The translations under genes and the position numbers were made by a program. Of a stretch of DNA of 41,144 nucleotides, positions 4,321 to 25,571 are shown piece after piece. The notes beneath the pieces are model-generated. The model did no database searches. It was not told the DNA's origin and was given only the letters and a program-made list of their open reading frames with translations. Position 1 is the stretch's first letter. Each line of letters begins with the position of its first letter. This DNA is from Alphaproteobacteria bacterium (GTDB lineage Bacteria; Pseudomonadota; Alphaproteobacteria; UBA8366). The stretch is from positions 1-41,144 of the forward strand of contig JBFWNZ010000001.1 in NCBI GenBank assembly GCA_050250795.1. Reading direction: 5' to 3'.

Positions 4321-4975
4321 CCTCGCGGAACCGGTCGATCCAGCCCCCGATCTCGTCGGGCCGCGTCTTGAATGCGGTGCGATTGACGATCAGCCGGCTG
4401 GACACCTCGGCAATGGTCTCGACCTCGACCAGCCCGTTCTCGGCCAGGGTGCGCCCCGTGGATACGAGATCCACGATCCGGCGGCAGAGCCCAAGCGTCG
4501 GCGCCAGTTCCATCGCACCGTTCAGCTTGATGCATTCCACCTGAACGCCGCGGGCGGCGAAATGGCGGCGCGTCACGCCCGGATACTTCGTCGCCACGCG
4601 GATATGGCTCCAGCGGCTCGGATCGTCCGTCTGCGACAGTTCCTTCGGCGCGGCAACCGCCAGCCGGCAGCGCCCGATCTTGAGATCGACCGGCGCATAA
4701 AGCTCGGGATAGTCGAATTCCATCAGCACGTCGCGGCCGGCCACGCCGATATGCGCCGCGCCGAAGGCGACGAAGGTCGCCGCGTCGAAGCTGCGCACGC
4801 GGATGACGGAGATATGCGGATGGTTGGTCGCAAAGCGAAGCTGGCGTGAATCCGGATCGTCGAACGCAGGCTCGGGCTCGATACCGGCCTTGCGGACAAT
4901 CGGCATCACCTCGCGCAGGATACGACCCCGCGGCAAGGCCAGAATCAGCGGCTCATTGGGGCTGACGGCACCCAT
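4304..4975 (-). CDS. hisG: ATP phosphoribosyltransferase, short form
   Basis: 223-aa ORF with [11 protein letters not shown] at the N-terminus, a short HisG(S)-type length, and a 17-nt overlap with hisD. Confidence 0.9.
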
Positions 4976-5082
4976 CCCAAACGCTCCCGATCAAATCGCG
5001 CGCCCTTATGACACAGGAGCCGGGATTTGGCCATCGCGCGGCAGCGCCGCACGTCCGATCCGGAAACAGCCCTAGCCCGATA

Positions 5083-20323: not shown

Positions 20324-20504
20324 GGGGCGATCCTCCGGTTGCGACGGCCTTTGCGGCCTTTCCGCCATTAACGCACAGGCCCCGGCCACCCGCCACCCGG
20401 CCGCCAAGGATGGCGGCCGCGCCGCGAACGCATGGCTCCGAGTCGACAATTAAAAATTGATCGATAAATTGCCATAATCTACTTTTAAGAAATGCTTCCG
20501 GCAC

Positions 20505-20532
20505 TTGAATTGCAGTATTTGTTCCCTATATG
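20505..20532 (+). promoter_or_regulatory. Putative sigma70-type promoter of the A-B-C cassette (TTGAAT - 16 nt - TATATG)
   Basis: Read from the sequence within the only strongly AT-rich intergenic stretch of the window (20445-20535). It is positioned about 28 nt upstream of the preferred A1 start at 20560. Confidence 0.35.
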
Positions 20533-20559: not shown

Positions 20560-21078
20560 ATGCCCGACACGATCCCACCGCGGCAACCCGGCTTCCGCGG
20601 CTATCTAGCCGAGCTGCGGGCCGATCCTGCCATCCCGTTCTGGCTGCGGGTTCTGTGCCTCCTGATGGCCGCCGCCATGCTGGTGGACGGCCTCATGCTG
20701 GTGGACTTTGCCGTCTTCCTCCGCCCGAGCCTGTCGCCCTGCCCAGGTTACTACCTGCCTTATTTCCTGCTGCCTAAGGGGCTGTCATGGGGCGTGATGA
20801 CGGCGAGCTACCTGTCGATTGCCTGTCTGCCTCCAACCCTTCGCTGGCGCCGCCCGATTATCCTTCTGGCCTGCCTCGCCGGCTGTTTCACGTTGCCTGC
20901 AATGCTTTTTTCCGAGATTTCTTTTTTCCTCACCCTGCTCTTCGATGTCTGGGACCCTCTTCCCAAAAGCTGCGATCTCCTTTTCAGAAGCCCTGCCCTC
21001 CTGCCCGTCGGTTCCATCGCACTGGTTCTGCTGCTCTTGTATTTCCAGGTCATTTTCCTGGTGGAGCGGAAACCATGA
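20560..21078 (+). CDS. Hypothetical 4-TM membrane protein (cassette protein A, copy 1)
   Basis: I chose the start at MPDTIPPRQPGFRGYLAEL, which aligns with the N-terminus of copy 2 (MSDILEPQRSRGFRGYLAEL) and has AGGA upstream. There are four hydrophobic segments. I recognise no known family. Confidence 0.7.
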   Translation: MPDTIPPRQPGFRGYLAELRADPAIPFWLRVLCLLMAAAMLVDGLMLVDFAVFLRPSLSPCPGYYLPYFLLPKGLSWGVMTASYLSIACLPPTLRWRRPIILLACLAGCFTLPAMLFSEISFFLTLLFDVWDPLPKSCDLLFRSPALLPVGSIALVLLLLYFQVIFLVERKP

Positions 21079-21686
21079 CTGCGCGTTGGTTGCCGTTTGG
21101 CAAGTTCCGTCCGCTGATCCGAACCCTCGCAGTCAAGATCGGGGTGAAAGTAGACCGGGTCATAACCGCCCTTTCGGACACCCCGTTCGTCAGGGTTTCG
21201 GCCAGGACCGTGTCAGCACTTCTCGGCTTCGTGATCCTCGCGCAGTCGGTCAACCTCCTGCTTACGGATATGGAGCCGCTGCGGCAGATTTATACAAATT
21301 CCGTCGATCACTGCCGCGATCAAAACCTCTCGGATTTCAGAATTTTACAGGTTGCATTCTGCATCGTCTTTCCTGTCGGATATTTCGTCCTGGCATTCTA
21401 TCCAACGAACCGACCAGAATGGCGCGCCGTCACCTGGTTTTCCACAGAAATCGGCCTTCTGTCTGCACCGGCTGCGTCCGTCGTGGATCTATTAATTCGT
21501 CTCAATTTAGACTGGCTTCTTATACGCGGAAACTGCGACCTACGACCGATATACGAATCCATCGCCCTCACGGTAAACCCGATCTTCTTTTTCTGCGTCC
21601 TGCTGATCCTGTCTATCCTGCTCTGGCACAGCAGGCGAGCGGATCGCAGAAGCCAGAAACAACATCAAGGATACAAAAATGGCTGA
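21075..21686 (+). CDS. Hypothetical 4-TM membrane protein (cassette protein B, copy 1)
   Basis: MTARWLPFGKFRPLIRTLAVKIGVKVDRVITALS... The ATG overlaps the A1 TGA (ATGA). It is homologous to residues from about 173 onward of the fused copy-2 protein. There are four hydrophobic segments and a basic C-terminal tail. Confidence 0.7.
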   Translation: MTARWLPFGKFRPLIRTLAVKIGVKVDRVITALSDTPFVRVSARTVSALLGFVILAQSVNLLLTDMEPLRQIYTNSVDHCRDQNLSDFRILQVAFCIVFPVGYFVLAFYPTNRPEWRAVTWFSTEIGLLSAPAASVVDLLIRLNLDWLLIRGNCDLRPIYESIALTVNPIFFFCVLLILSILLWHSRRADRRSQKQHQGYKNG

Positions 21687-22914
21687 TAAAAATTCAAATA
21701 TACCGGCTCCATCTGGAATCTTCGATATCCACGATGCTGCCGCGGCCGAAGCCGTCGCCTCACAACTTCCAGGTCGAGAAAATGGCCCTGCCGACGCCTA
21801 TCGTCACCTTCTCGGAGCTGCCGAGTTATCCCGCCAATATAAAGAAAGAACGGCAAGATTCATTCTCGATGCGAATGAACTTTTCTTCTTTGAAAGCAAG
21901 GAAGCAAAGGAGATGGATTACCACAACAACGCCATCGGCATCGAGATCGGCAAGACGGCGAAGAACTGGGACGAAGTGATTGCCATGAGCCGGGCTGCTA
22001 TCGACGCCGCCGGTATCGACGGCAAGGGAGACCGGCCCGACGCTGTGCGCTGGTTGCCGCCGGACCAGTGGCGAAAAAACCCGAAATACGAGCACGATCC
22101 GAAGCGGGAAATGCCGACGGAAGAGACCAACTGGTACACCAACCCCAACCGCCCCGACGGGATCGATTGGATCGGCGGCTATGTTCCGAATCCTTTGCCT
22201 AGGAAGCGGCTACCGGATATTCCGACCGATATGGCGCGTTCTCGGCGAGAAACGGTGCCGCTCGCGGCAATGACCGAGGCCGAGATGCGCCGCGCGATGA
22301 AAAGCGATGCCTATTGGACCGCAGGCCATCCCGAGCATCGCGCCGCGCAGCAGGCCGTCCGGGCATGGCACGACAACCGCTACGGCACCGCGCCGTCACC
22401 TCTCGACGCCGCCGGCCGGATGCGTCCGGTACCGGCCGCAGCACCGCATATCGCCCGGACCAGCGCGCGTGCCGATGCGTCGGCGCTCGCCTTGCCCCGG
22501 CGCATGGCGGCGGCTCAGCCCCCTGCGCCGGGTGGCCTGTTTACAAATGATGACATCCAGCAAAAGGCGACGCCGGACCAGGAGAACGCGCAGGCGTTGG
22601 ACCTGCTTTTGCGCTTCGCCCGGGACGCTCTGCGGAGCGGGGATGCCAGCGGCCTTCCCGACGCGGTGGACCGCGGCCTCGGCGGCCTGTTTCCCGCCAC
22701 CCCGCCCGGCCGGCCCGCGCCTTGGCGCCAGGCGGTGCAGGACACGATCAACGACCTCGCGGGCAGCGGCCGGCACGCAACGGCGGATGCCGAGCCCCTG
22801 CGCGACGACGGCGAGATCGGGCCCAGGACCGTCGCAGCCTTCGGCCGCACGCTGACCGGCGCCGGCCCAGACCGCTTCGTCCGGCGCCTCGCCCAGAATC
22901 TCGGATTTGCCTGA
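21679..22914 (+). CDS. Hypothetical soluble protein (cassette protein C, copy 1, full length): conserved N-terminal DAYRH/MDYHNN domain, Pro/Ala-rich linker, C-terminal peptidoglycan-binding-like motif
   Basis: 411-aa ORF with AGGA 7 nt upstream and an 8-nt overlap with B1. No signal peptide or TM segment is visible. The C-terminus DGEIGPRTVAAFGRTLT resembles the PG_binding_1 core (DGxxGPxTxxAxxxFQ). Confidence 0.75.
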   Translation: MADKNSNIPAPSGIFDIHDAAAAEAVASQLPGRENGPADAYRHLLGAAELSRQYKERTARFILDANELFFFESKEAKEMDYHNNAIGIEIGKTAKNWDEVIAMSRAAIDAAGIDGKGDRPDAVRWLPPDQWRKNPKYEHDPKREMPTEETNWYTNPNRPDGIDWIGGYVPNPLPRKRLPDIPTDMARSRRETVPLAAMTEAEMRRAMKSDAYWTAGHPEHRAAQQAVRAWHDNRYGTAPSPLDAAGRMRPVPAAAPHIARTSARADASALALPRRMAAAQPPAPGGLFTNDDIQQKATPDQENAQALDLLLRFARDALRSGDASGLPDAVDRGLGGLFPATPPGRPAPWRQAVQDTINDLAGSGRHATADAEPLRDDGEIGPRTVAAFGRTLTGAGPDRFVRRLAQNLGFA

Positions 22915-22921
22915 ACCGTCG

Positions 22922-22944
22922 CCCTCCCGGCTCCGCCGGGAGGG
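22922..22944 (+). terminator. GC-rich hairpin between cassette copies (CCCTCCCGG-ctccg-CCGGGAGGG), a possible attenuator or weak terminator
   Basis: A perfect 9-bp inverted repeat, read directly, lies 8 nt after the C1 stop. It is followed only by a weak T tract (ttcctcc), so termination efficiency is doubtful. Confidence 0.3.
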
Positions 22945-22974: not shown

Positions 22975-24102
22975 ATGAGCGATATCCTTGAACCGCAAAG
23001 AAGTCGCGGCTTCCGCGGCTATCTAGCCGAGTTGCGGGCCGATCCTGCCATCCCGTTCTGGCTGCGGGTTCTGTGCCTCTTGATGGCCGCCGCCATGCTG
23101 GTGGACGGCCTCATGCTGGTGGACTTTGCCGTCTTCCTCCGCCCGAGCCTGTCGCCCTGCCCAGGTTACTATCTGCTGTATTTCCTGCTGCCGAAGGGAC
23201 TTTCATGGGGCGTGATGACGGCGAGCTACCTGTCGATTGCCTGTCTGCCTCCGACCCTTCGCTGGCGCCGCCCGATAATCCTTCTGGCCTGTCTCGCCGG
23301 CTGCCTCGCGATGCCCGCGATATTTCTTTCCAACGTTCTTCTAATCGGCGCGCTTTTCAGTTCCGAGTATATGCTGCCCGACACTTGCGTGCTTTTGTTC
23401 AGAAGCCCCGCCCTGCTGTCCGTCAGCTTGATCGCGCTGGTCCTGCTGCTCCTCTATTTCCAGGTCATCTTCCTGGTGGAGCGGAAGCCATCGGCCGCGT
23501 ATCGGTTGCCGTCCCGCAAGCTCCATCCGCCGACCCGAAACCTCGCCGCCAGGATCGCAGTGCAGGCAGACCGGGTCATAACCGCCCTTTCGAACGCGCC
23601 CTACGTCAGGGTTGGCATCAGAACGGCGTCCGCGCTTCTCGGCTTCGCGAGCCTCGCTCAGTCGGTCAACATCCTGCTTACGGAGTTGGAACCGCTCCGG
23701 CAGATTTATACAGATATCATCGACCCATGCCTTAACCACGAGATCTCGGACTTCCGGATCCTACAGGTTGCCTTCAGCATCGTCTTGCTTGGCGGATATT
23801 TCGTCCTGGCATTCTATCCAACGAACCGACCGGAACGGCGCGCAGTCACCTGGCTCACCACAGAAATCGGGCTGTTATCCGCGCTGGCCGCGCTCGTCGC
23901 GAACCGGTTCGTTCGTCTCGATATTGAAGGGCTACATATACGTGAAGCTTGCAAGTTTCAACCAATCTACGAAACCATTTGTCTTACGATAAGCCCGATA
24001 TTCTTCTCCGTATCTCTGCTGATCCTGTTCGTCCTTCTCTGGCACAGCAGACGCACGGAACGCAGAACCCAACAATTTCAAGGAAACGAAAATGGCCGAT
24101 AA
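22975..24102 (+). CDS. Hypothetical 8-TM membrane protein (fused A-B, cassette copy 2)
   Basis: 375-aa ORF. Residues 1 to about 172 align with A1, and the remainder aligns with B1 (SAAYRLPSRKLHPPTRNLAARIAVQADRVITALS versus TARWLPFGKFRPLIRTLAVKIGVKVDRVITALS). Confidence 0.75.
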   Translation: MSDILEPQRSRGFRGYLAELRADPAIPFWLRVLCLLMAAAMLVDGLMLVDFAVFLRPSLSPCPGYYLLYFLLPKGLSWGVMTASYLSIACLPPTLRWRRPIILLACLAGCLAMPAIFLSNVLLIGALFSSEYMLPDTCVLLFRSPALLSVSLIALVLLLLYFQVIFLVERKPSAAYRLPSRKLHPPTRNLAARIAVQADRVITALSNAPYVRVGIRTASALLGFASLAQSVNILLTELEPLRQIYTDIIDPCLNHEISDFRILQVAFSIVLLGGYFVLAFYPTNRPERRAVTWLTTEIGLLSALAALVANRFVRLDIEGLHIREACKFQPIYETICLTISPIFFSVSLLILFVLLWHSRRTERRTQQFQGNENGR

Positions 24103-24625
24103 GACTTTCGAGACAGCGACCCCATCCGGCATCTGGGGCATCAAAAGGGCTGCCGAGGCCGCAGCGGTCGCGTCGCAGTTGCCGGGCCAACAAAGCGGCC
24201 CTGCGGACGCCTATCGTCACTTGCTTGGATCCGCTGAGTTAACCCGAAGAAAGGGTGAGTATCTCGCGCGGATCATCCTCGATTTGAATGAGATCATCTC
24301 TCTCGAAAGCAGGGAAGCAAAGGAGATGGATTACCACAACAACGCCATCGGCATCGAGATTGGCAAGACCGCCAAAAGCTGGGGCGAGGTTATCGTGAGG
24401 AGTCGAGCCGCCATCGACGCCGCCAGTATCGACGGCAAGGGAGACCGGCCCGACGCTGTGCGTTGGTTGCCGCCGGACCAGTGGCGGAAAAACCCGAAAT
24501 ACGAGCACGATCCGAAGCGGGAAATGCCGACGGAAGAGACCAACTGGTACACCAACCCCGGCCGTCCCAACGGCATCGACTGGATCGGCGGCGGCATTCC
24601 GAACCCTCTCGCCCGGAACAAATGA
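24092..24625 (+). CDS. Hypothetical soluble protein (cassette protein C, copy 2, N-terminal domain only; possibly a truncated derivative)
   Basis: 177-aa ORF with AGGA upstream and an 11-nt overlap with the fused A-B gene. It aligns with C1 residues 1 to about 175 and includes a 130/132-nt near-identical block. It ends where C1 continues. Confidence 0.7.
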   Translation: MADKTFETATPSGIWGIKRAAEAAAVASQLPGQQSGPADAYRHLLGSAELTRRKGEYLARIILDLNEIISLESREAKEMDYHNNAIGIEIGKTAKSWGEVIVRSRAAIDAASIDGKGDRPDAVRWLPPDQWRKNPKYEHDPKREMPTEETNWYTNPGRPNGIDWIGGGIPNPLARNK

Positions 24626-24773
24626 GGGGATTTGGACCCTTACCGGATACTTCGGCCCATATCGCCATTCCCCCAAGAACGCCGCCGACGTCTCGCCCGG
24701 CCTCTCGGCTTCGCGTAAGCGAACGGCAATGCGGCGGGACGTCCCGATGTCGCGCGCGGCCCGCCGCGATGCC

Positions 24774-25571
24774 TCAGCGGCCGGTAAAGACCGGGCTGCG
24801 CTTTTCCATGAAGGCGGTGCGGCCTTCCTTATAGTCCTGGCTGTCGAAGCAGCGGCGGCCGAGTTCGGCCACAAGCGCCGGATCGCGGTCGGCCGGATCC
24901 TTCAGCAGGTCGGCGATGGTGAGCTTGGAGGCCAGGATCGACAGCGGCGCATTGTCCACGATGGTCGCCGCATAGTCTCGGGTCATCGCTTCCAGCTCCG
25001 CGGCCGGGACCACCCGGTTGACGAGGCCGATGCGCAGCGCCTCCTCGGCCGGAACGCGCCGGGCGCTGAACAGGATGTCGCGGGCGTAGGCCGGCCCGAC
25101 CAGCGAGATCAGCCGGCGGATATGCAGCGGCGAATAGGCGATGGAGAGCCGCGCCGCGGGGATGCCGAGCTGCGAGTCGTCGGAGACGAAGCGCATGTCG
25201 GCGACCATCGCCAGCGCCAGACCGCCGCCCAGGCAATAGCCGCGGACCATCGCGATCAGCGGCTTCTCGATGGAGGCCAGCTTCTCGCGCGAGGCATCGC
25301 TGATGCGGGCATATTCCTCGGCCGCGTCGGCGTTGGCGCGCACCTTCTCGAACTGCGAGATATCGGCGCCGGAGACGAAGGCCTTGTCGCCCGCGCCCTT
25401 CATCACCACGACGCGGACGCTGTCGTCGGCGCTGAAATCGTCGACGATCTGGGACAGCGCCTCCCACATCTCCATCGACATGGCGTTGCGGCGGGCCGGG
25501 TTGTTGAAGGTGATCCAGCCGATCCCGTTGTCCTTCTCGGCCAGCATCTTGTCGGTATTGAGCGCGAGCAT
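24774..25571 (-). CDS. Enoyl-CoA hydratase/isomerase family protein
   Basis: I chose the start at MLALNTDKMLAEKDNGIGWITFNNPARRNAMS, with AGGAGG upstream, giving 265 aa. It is crotonase-fold (GAGDKAFVSGADISQF). Confidence 0.85.
   Translation of the reverse strand: MLALNTDKMLAEKDNGIGWITFNNPARRNAMSMEMWEALSQIVDDFSADDSVRVVVMKGAGDKAFVSGADISQFEKVRANADAAEEYARISDASREKLASIEKPLIAMVRGYCLGGGLALAMVADMRFVSDDSQLGIPAARLSIAYSPLHIRRLISLVGPAYARDILFSARRVPAEEALRIGLVNRVVPAAELEAMTRDYAATIVDNAPLSILASKLTIADLLKDPADRDPALVAELGRRCFDSQDYKEGRTAFMEKRSPVFTGR

Follow-up and report, generated by a model that had tools for sequence, protein, structure and literature searches.

A one-base difference between two tandem cassettes separates a coupled pair of membrane-protein genes from its putative fused form

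Transitions of reading frame between neighbouring genes have been catalogued by GeneTack (PMC3711429), the growth of internal-repeat membrane proteins through duplication and fusion of small units with an even number of helices has been reviewed (PMC3962082), and the reverse process, the natural splitting of membrane proteins, has been described as well (PMC3464245). A further described system is BteO/BtiO, a type VI secretion system (T6SS) effector-immunity pair of Bacteroides fragilis GA3, in which BteO is a non-enzymatic toxin that binds the periplasmic C-terminal domain of OmpA and is neutralised by BtiO, a periplasmic mimic of OmpA (PMC12541434). Here, we analysed a locus with points of contact to each of these systems. 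It lies in contig JBFWNZ010000001.1 of the alphaproteobacterial assembly GCA_050250795.1, a metagenome-assembled genome (MAG) of 457 contigs and 3.8 Mb that is 93.6% complete; the window of this study is the one entire contig, 41,144 bp long. Two tandem plus-strand cassettes, each made up of one or two membrane genes followed by a gene for a DUF6973 (BteO-like) protein, sit side by side in a block of lower guanine-plus-cytosine (GC) content. In the first cassette the membrane genes, here called A and B, are separate and overlap by ATGA, and in the second they form a single open reading frame (ORF), AB2. As in the coupled ATGA pairs that are fused elsewhere (so-called “Rosetta stone” pairs), stop and start are co-located, so that a change of one base yields a single ORF.

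The A/B junction in the two cassettes

Cassette 1 consists of A1 (20560-21078), B1 (21075-21686) and C1 (21679-22914), and cassette 2 of AB2 (22975-24102) and C2 (24092-24625). A1 ends ...GTG GAG CGG AAA CCA TGA, with CCA at 21073-75 and TGA at 21076-78, and the corresponding stretch of copy 2 reads ...GTG GAG CGG AAG CCA TCG GCC GCG TAT CGG, with CCA at 23488-90, in a frame that stays open from 22975 to 24102 and encodes 375 amino acids (aa). When the two copies were aligned with MAFFT, a lone gap fell at the A/B boundary (CCAT-GACTGCG in copy 1 versus CCATCGGCCGCG in copy 2), and the distance from CCA through GACCGGGTCATAACC came to 95 nt in copy 1 (21073-21167) and 96 nt in copy 2 (23488-23583). 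The extra base, C23492, splits the former ATG, so that the start of B is lost, and moves the former stop of A out of frame; the former stop position itself reads G, not A, in copy 2. In the shifted frames, identity between the copies runs on without stops on either side of the junction, at 82% of amino acids over 171 codons for A1/A2 and 63% over 202 codons for B1/B2, and the homology of A and of B across both sides of the junction is no chance alignment.

The effect of the single base was reproduced in silico. Insertion of a C into copy 1 produced a fused ORF of 375 aa, and deletion of C23492 from copy 2 gave B2 back its ATG start (MAAYRLP...). The initial annotation had attributed the split and fused states to a 1-nt length difference at this point, and both the single MAFFT gap and the in silico edits agree with it; its count of 95 versus 96 nt was correct, its placement of the B1 start within CCATGA (21075) and of the 375-aa ORF at 22975-24102 was recovered when the sequence was re-read, and its observation that the alignment of B continues past the junction is borne out by the B1/B2 identity given above. 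One of its expectations failed, namely that an indel error at either junction would leave the two copies alike: in copy 2 without C23492 the former A2 stop is TGG, and A2 runs on for 29 codons into B2.

The features of the locus are as follows, all on the plus strand:

20443..20478, +, AT-rich promoter-like region 5' of cassette 1, with two sigma-70-like matches (9/12), a consensus match only
20560..21078, +, A1, predicted 4-helix membrane protein of 172 aa, an ORF with no Pfam or NCBIfam family
21063..21066, +, GGAG, Shine-Dalgarno-like motif in the last part of A1 and 8 nt upstream of the B1 ATG, read from the sequence
21075..21078, +, ATGA stop/start overlap of the split junction (B1 ATG at 21075-77, A1 TGA at 21076-78)
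21075..21686, +, B1, predicted 4-helix membrane protein of 203 aa and paralogue of A (hhalign of A family versus B family)
21679..22914, +, C1, DUF6973 (BteO-like) protein of 411 aa (Pfam PF22322), sharing its first 8 nt with the end of B1
22922..22944, +, GC-rich hairpin CCCTCCCGG-CTCCG-CCGGGAGGG without a T-run, between C1 and cassette 2, read from the sequence
22975..24102, +, AB2, fused ORF of 375 aa (A2 half 22975-23490, B2 half 23491-24099)
23488..23496, +, fused junction CCA TCG GCC with the extra C at 23492 (alignment and in silico edits)
24092..24625, +, C2, DUF6973 protein of 177 aa, shorter than C1 (Pfam PF22322), sharing its first 11 nt with the end of AB2

The block that holds both cassettes extends from 20.45 to 24.7 kb, has a GC content of about 0.51-0.61 as opposed to 0.65-0.72 in its flanks, and is bounded by an MmgE/PrpD gene and an enoyl-CoA hydratase (ECH) gene, both on the minus strand. 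The closest homologues of the flank genes reach just about 60-65% identity and come partly from Acetobacteraceae-like and partly from betaproteobacterial MAGs. The promoter-like region at 20443..20478 falls within the sole AT-rich stretch there. For A1, the start at 20560 (MPDTIPP...) agrees with the N-termini of the relatives P0011 and P0013 introduced below; an alternative ATG lies upstream at 20530. The GGAG motif is kept in window copy 2 and in two related metagenome contigs, L005 and L016 (see below), and the hairpin also occurs 5' of the position-2 cassette in the contigs L012, L015 and L016. C2 ends at a point beyond which C1 runs on for about 230 codons (window 24626-24775).

A GGAG placed upstream of an ATGA overlap is the usual mark of coupling between termination and re-initiation of translation. 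In cassette 1, such an overlap would couple the translation of A and B and lead to their equimolar synthesis. Alternatively, copy 1 might also make a fused A1-B1 product by programmed -1 ribosomal frameshifting, given that the frame of B1 is -1 relative to A1 and has no stop for a long way upstream, as far as 20787. However, the bases before the A1 stop (GAG CGG AAA CCA TGA) include no slippery heptamer of the form X XXY YYZ, and a conserved ATG with a properly spaced GGAG is what coupled re-initiation looks like; we regard frameshifting as extremely improbable.

Relatives of A and B and the direction of the change

Neither A nor B has a convincing family match in Pfam, NCBIfam, PADLOC or PHROG. 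A SLATT-like match in B2 (PADLOC RTasSLATT, 16.5 bits, E = 0.0013; NCBIfam SLATT_5, E = 0.034) was treated as noise; these two-helix matches of SLATT type cover window positions 23659-23826 (AB2 residues 229-284), are found in B2 only, being absent in B1, and are probably compositional. To size the family, 1.84 billion representative proteins were scanned in full with HMMER, and only 5 of them matched: A1, B1, a fragment of A from L005, and two single-domain relatives of 177-180 aa, P0011 and P0013. These two share with A an N-terminus of the form MPDTIPLRRPGLRGYLA...DPTVPFWLR, and their ends coincide with that of A (...AP-stop and ...KP-stop versus ...KP-stop in A). With P0011, A1 (E = 5e-21) and B1 (E = 5e-11) each give a match, and hhalign of the A-family versus the B-family profile returned a probability of 95.2% (E = 2.9e-8, 143 columns). 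Because one single-domain protein matches both halves and the two family profiles match each other, we conclude that A and B are paralogues of one domain. A direct BLASTP comparison of A1 with B1 was not significant (E = 2.3). An alignment that included P0011 and P0013 pulled B onto the A half and was set aside for structure prediction; this shift is consistent with homology between A and B.

Relatives of the locus itself were found in several assemblies. In L006 (GCA_030830825.1) and L011 (SRR28842990), the left flank is that of the window (abhydrolase, MmgE/PrpD) and is followed by the gene for P0011 or P0013 and then by a diverged DUF6973 gene; no B gene is present at these two loci. L005 (JGI 3300001605) and L016 (ENA ERZ27315062) carry A and B genes that are about 93% identical to copy 1, with an identical GGAGCGGAAGCCATGAC junction and its GGAG. 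Positions 1-320 of L016 hold a C1-type gene end together with the GC hairpin that precedes cassette 2 in the window, and the start of the A gene in L016 resembles that of A2. Because of this C1-type gene end and hairpin upstream, L016 is evidently a position-2 cassette, and one that is split. Its A/B body (319-1430) resembles window copy 1 in spite of that position, and cassette bodies therefore appear to have been exchanged between positions. L005, compared with L016, has three single-base insertions in A within 210 nt (alignment columns 348, 508 and 552), one of which creates a TAG; they may be sequencing errors in an old draft metagenome or mark a real pseudogene.

A third kind of locus is seen in L012, L013 and L015, where the right flank (ECH, CoA transferase) is present along with a C2-type gene of 177 aa that is intact and near-identical to C2. 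Here, the position-2 membrane gene is an out-of-frame remnant left by a deletion of about 0.9 kb (L012, 990-1217; L013; L015, 115-330), in which the first ~15 codons of A are joined to the last ~55 codons of B. Finally, in L108, from another metagenome, the end of a B2-like gene precedes a full-length C gene; this contig begins downstream of the junction. The window, L006/L012 and L011/L015 have the abhydrolase, MmgE/PrpD, ECH and CoA-transferase flanks in common, and between these common flanks the membrane and DUF6973 genes are only 30-46% identical or rearranged.

The survey of split and fused forms among homologues that had been suggested along with the initial annotation thus gave 3 of 4 junctions split, with the fused form in the window alone; single-domain genes occur in 6 contigs from at least 5 samples, and remnants in 3 contigs. 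AB2 is the sole member of its 90% cluster, on one contig. A word-based search with AB2 returned AB2 alone, a profile scan of genome contigs with the A-family alignment gave no relatives, scans of metagenome contigs with the B-family alignment and with exact 24-mers found no further junction, and 60 related genomes held no homologue.

These data bear on the direction of the change, which the initial annotation had left as “fission/fusion”. Since the Pro-stop of A is common to the single-domain relatives, and since the position-2 cassette is split elsewhere (L016), the split form is ancestral and window copy 2 a derived fusion, rather than copy 1 a product of fission. In other words, the fusion half of that description is upheld, by the shared Pro-stop and by the majority of split junctions, and the fission half is not. 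The opposite course, in which the fused form came first and copy 1 arose by gene fission, has in its favour that the loss of one base from CCATCGAC gives stop and start together, a step equally simple in both directions. However, a fused ancestor would need the stop to reappear at the ancestral position, which is exactly where the single-domain relatives stop, and 3 of the 4 junctions are split, one of them at position 2; we consider this course very unlikely. The TGG that copy 2 would show without C23492 agrees with a substitution that occurred after the stop had gone out of frame.

A derived fusion presupposes that C23492 is real, and we weighed whether it could instead be an artefact of assembly or sequencing, such that copy 2 is not truly fused. 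The fused form is present on one contig only, that contig belongs to a MAG in hundreds of fragments, and the single-base insertions of L005 show that contigs of this locus are not free of indel artefacts or genuine frameshifts. Against this, the fused site, CATCGG, contains no homopolymer. Neighbouring window genes are intact, and the flank genes have the same lengths as in related assemblies (295, 455 and 410 aa), so the window has no general excess of indels. The supposedly corrected copy 2, with its TGG and its run-on into B2, would moreover be less orderly than the clean 375-aa ORF. We therefore regard an artefact as distinctly unlikely.

Function of the fused protein and its DUF6973 partner

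In the AlphaFold2 model of AB2, DSSP assigns four long helices to each half; the model was built from a 5-row alignment and has a mean predicted local distance difference test score (pLDDT) of 39 and a predicted template modelling score (pTM) of 0.25, and we took from it the helix count alone, as it is unfit for judging how the halves pack. Kyte-Doolittle hydropathy gives three strong segments per half along with a weaker second helix. Basic residues occur at both termini and in the loop that connects helices 2 and 3 (RWRR / RPEWR), and each half has one Cys in each of the two other, predicted outer, loops. This distribution fits a four-helix unit for each half with both ends and the basic loop in the cytoplasm (N-in/C-in). 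The proposed count of eight transmembrane helices for A and B together fits the hydropathy and the predicted helices, although the structure model is of low confidence.

We propose the following account. A tandem duplication in this lineage would have turned the one membrane gene per cassette that is seen in close relatives into the paralogues A and B, whose coupled synthesis as subunits would favour a heteromeric A/B unit where the single-domain relatives presumably form homomers. In cassette 2, one C inserted within ATG(A) would have removed the start of B, put the stop of A out of frame and brought B into the frame of A. The result would be a single 8-helix polypeptide, in which the cytoplasmic tail of A is joined to the long basic N-terminal tail of B; within that tail, the AB2 model (pLDDT 39) predicts an amphipathic helix at residues 185-206. 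With four helices per half and both joined ends cytoplasmic, no change of topology would be needed. The initial annotation had already treated A and B as one unit, and the paralogous halves, the ATGA coupling in two independent assemblies and the single-domain relatives speak for this; the physical association of A and B is the part of that claim that we infer, as are the functionality of AB2 and a role of the membrane proteins as antidote or partner of the DUF6973 protein. Taken as a whole, the account of duplication to a coupled A/B pair, fusion by one C in cassette 2, an 8-helix AB2 and a DUF6973 partner seems to us probable.

Selection on the copies gives a mixed picture. Between the copies, pairwise nonsynonymous and synonymous divergence (dN/dS values) is 0.135/0.310 for A, 0.231/0.475 for B and 0.159/0.727 for C, with ratios that are all below 1 (0.43, 0.49 and 0.22, respectively). 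Similarity between the copies is mosaic: codons 16-105 of A have 93-99% DNA identity (window 20590-20890 versus 23008-23305) and codons 106-150 about 61% (20900-21020 versus 23320-23440), and C is likewise mosaic, with codons 106-165 at 93-98%. This pattern suggests gene conversion, localised diversification, or both.

Several observations weigh against the proposed account. The AB2 model, with its pLDDT of 39, is uninformative. A three-sequence decomposition puts dN/dS at 0.54-0.62 on the copy-2 branch versus 0.16-0.43 on the others, a rough estimate that is confounded by the mosaicism. In the linker of AB2, made up of the first 30 codons of B, dN is 0.34 and dS 0.24, with no signal of purifying selection. 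In addition, L012, L013 and L015 retain no more than a deletion remnant of the position-2 membrane gene, next to an intact C2-type gene. Because of the copy-2 dN/dS, the linker and this deletion in relatives, relaxed constraint on AB2 is a possibility, and the position-2 membrane gene may be dispensable, with the fusion tolerated only through weak constraint. On an alternative reading, the fusion is real and AB2 is decaying or functionally irrelevant, the position-2 membrane gene being no longer needed; the truncation of C2 relative to C1 would fit this as well. However, AB2 is open over 375 codons and its B2 half has a dN/dS of about 0.5, not 1, a B2-type gene accompanies a full-length C gene in another metagenome (L108), and a random frameshift usually truncates a protein instead of producing an exact in-frame join. 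We consider decay unlikely, and it is plausible that either form, split or fused, would be functionally tolerated.

The gene that follows the membrane gene(s) links the cassettes to BteO. C1 and C2 match Pfam PF22322 (DUF6973) at 40.4 and 42 bits (cut-off 27), the BteO segment of PDB entry 9UU0 (MBP-BteO) scores 51.8 bits on the same family, and a profile of C relatives matches 9UU0 with E = 7.1e-5, with the RH, (H)E and D..NN motifs aligned. A PDB search with the single C2 sequence gave nothing meaningful, and a Foldseek search of the PDB with the C2 model (pLDDT 72) returned nothing with E below 1, and 9UU0 was not among its matches; the link between C and BteO is therefore based on the profile match and the common Pfam family, and not on a fold search. 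A match of C1 to phrog_3742 (17.7 bits) was treated as noise. The key interface residues of BteO are R143/H144, H167/E168 and D191, and an H167A/E168A double mutant has been tested as a mutant of the interface (PMC12541434). C1 and C2 keep the RH (in ADAYRH), the Glu and the D of MDYHNN, and the His of HE is Asn. This exchange is found in C1, C2 and the C2-like proteins of L012 and L108 (LDLNEI / LDANEL), and all other relatives keep HE; the proteins that bear Asn may be weakened or differ in their binding. Neither a signal peptide nor a transmembrane helix is present in C, and the T6SS protein TssC/VipB (PF05943) was not found in the window’s own genome (93.6% complete). Elsewhere in the same order, DUF6973 lies at the C-terminal end of proteins of 350-500 aa, and small ORFs with 1-3 hydrophobic segments come after the DUF6973 gene at 4 of the 9 loci examined. 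In L004, a distant relative from a 7.8-Mb genome, an uncalled ORF of 182 aa with four hydrophobic segments (4438-4986) lies directly upstream of a DUF6973-like gene, whose start it overlaps; its sequence is not significantly similar to that of A or B.

Since the cassettes are highly variable between conserved flanks and since the context is that of DUF6973 and BteO, the locus would fit a toxin/antidote type. Variable cassettes at a fixed site between conserved flanks are a trait of effector-immunity loci and are found here. Strict one-to-one immunity, on the other hand, is not: the C2-type gene stays intact without a membrane gene in L012, L013 and L015, and this counts against the antidote role. 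By analogy with BteO/BtiO, we tentatively suggest that A/B may be a membrane antidote or partner of C, without favouring this over other roles. We are more doubtful of the wider idea that A/B is a new four-helix family that acts as dimers, as antidote or partner of BteO-like non-enzymatic toxins in proteobacteria without a T6SS, and of which three stages of growth have been kept. If the family were such a dimeric antidote, the function of the homodimer (single gene), the heterodimer (coupled pair) and the fused pseudo-dimer could be compared stage by stage.

Comparison with known systems

Of the described systems, BteO/BtiO is close through the partner gene, as C1 and C2 share the DUF6973 domain with the head domain of BteO. 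The differences are considerable: BteO has an N-terminal transmembrane helix and is delivered by a T6SS, whereas C has no such helix and no TssC was found in the genome; and BtiO is a periplasmic mimic of the C-terminal domain of OmpA, whereas the proteins encoded upstream here are predicted four-helix membrane proteins without a family match. The orphan membrane family, tied as it is to DUF6973/BteO-like proteins, offers a handle on the role of the latter outside Bacteroides and without a T6SS.

With “Rosetta stone” pairs, the locus also shares the reading of fusion as a sign of functional linkage. Unlike in those pairs, both states are found here 2.4 kb apart in one locus, as paralogous copies of a cassette, and the fused partners are themselves paralogues. 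The likeness to internal-repeat membrane proteins lies in the occurrence of single-domain, paralogous-pair and fused two-repeat forms in one family, and in a predicted even helix count that would allow a parallel fusion without an extra helix; unlike those proteins, the A/B family is tiny and has no transport or other activity assigned to it. The compact arrangement allows a direct test of whether covalent linking of two paralogous membrane subunits changes their function. Both the one-base fusion of coupled neighbours and the growth of membrane proteins by duplication and fusion are well known, and what is new here is a tidy example from a family that is nearly an orphan, in which one locus shows every stage in closely related populations.

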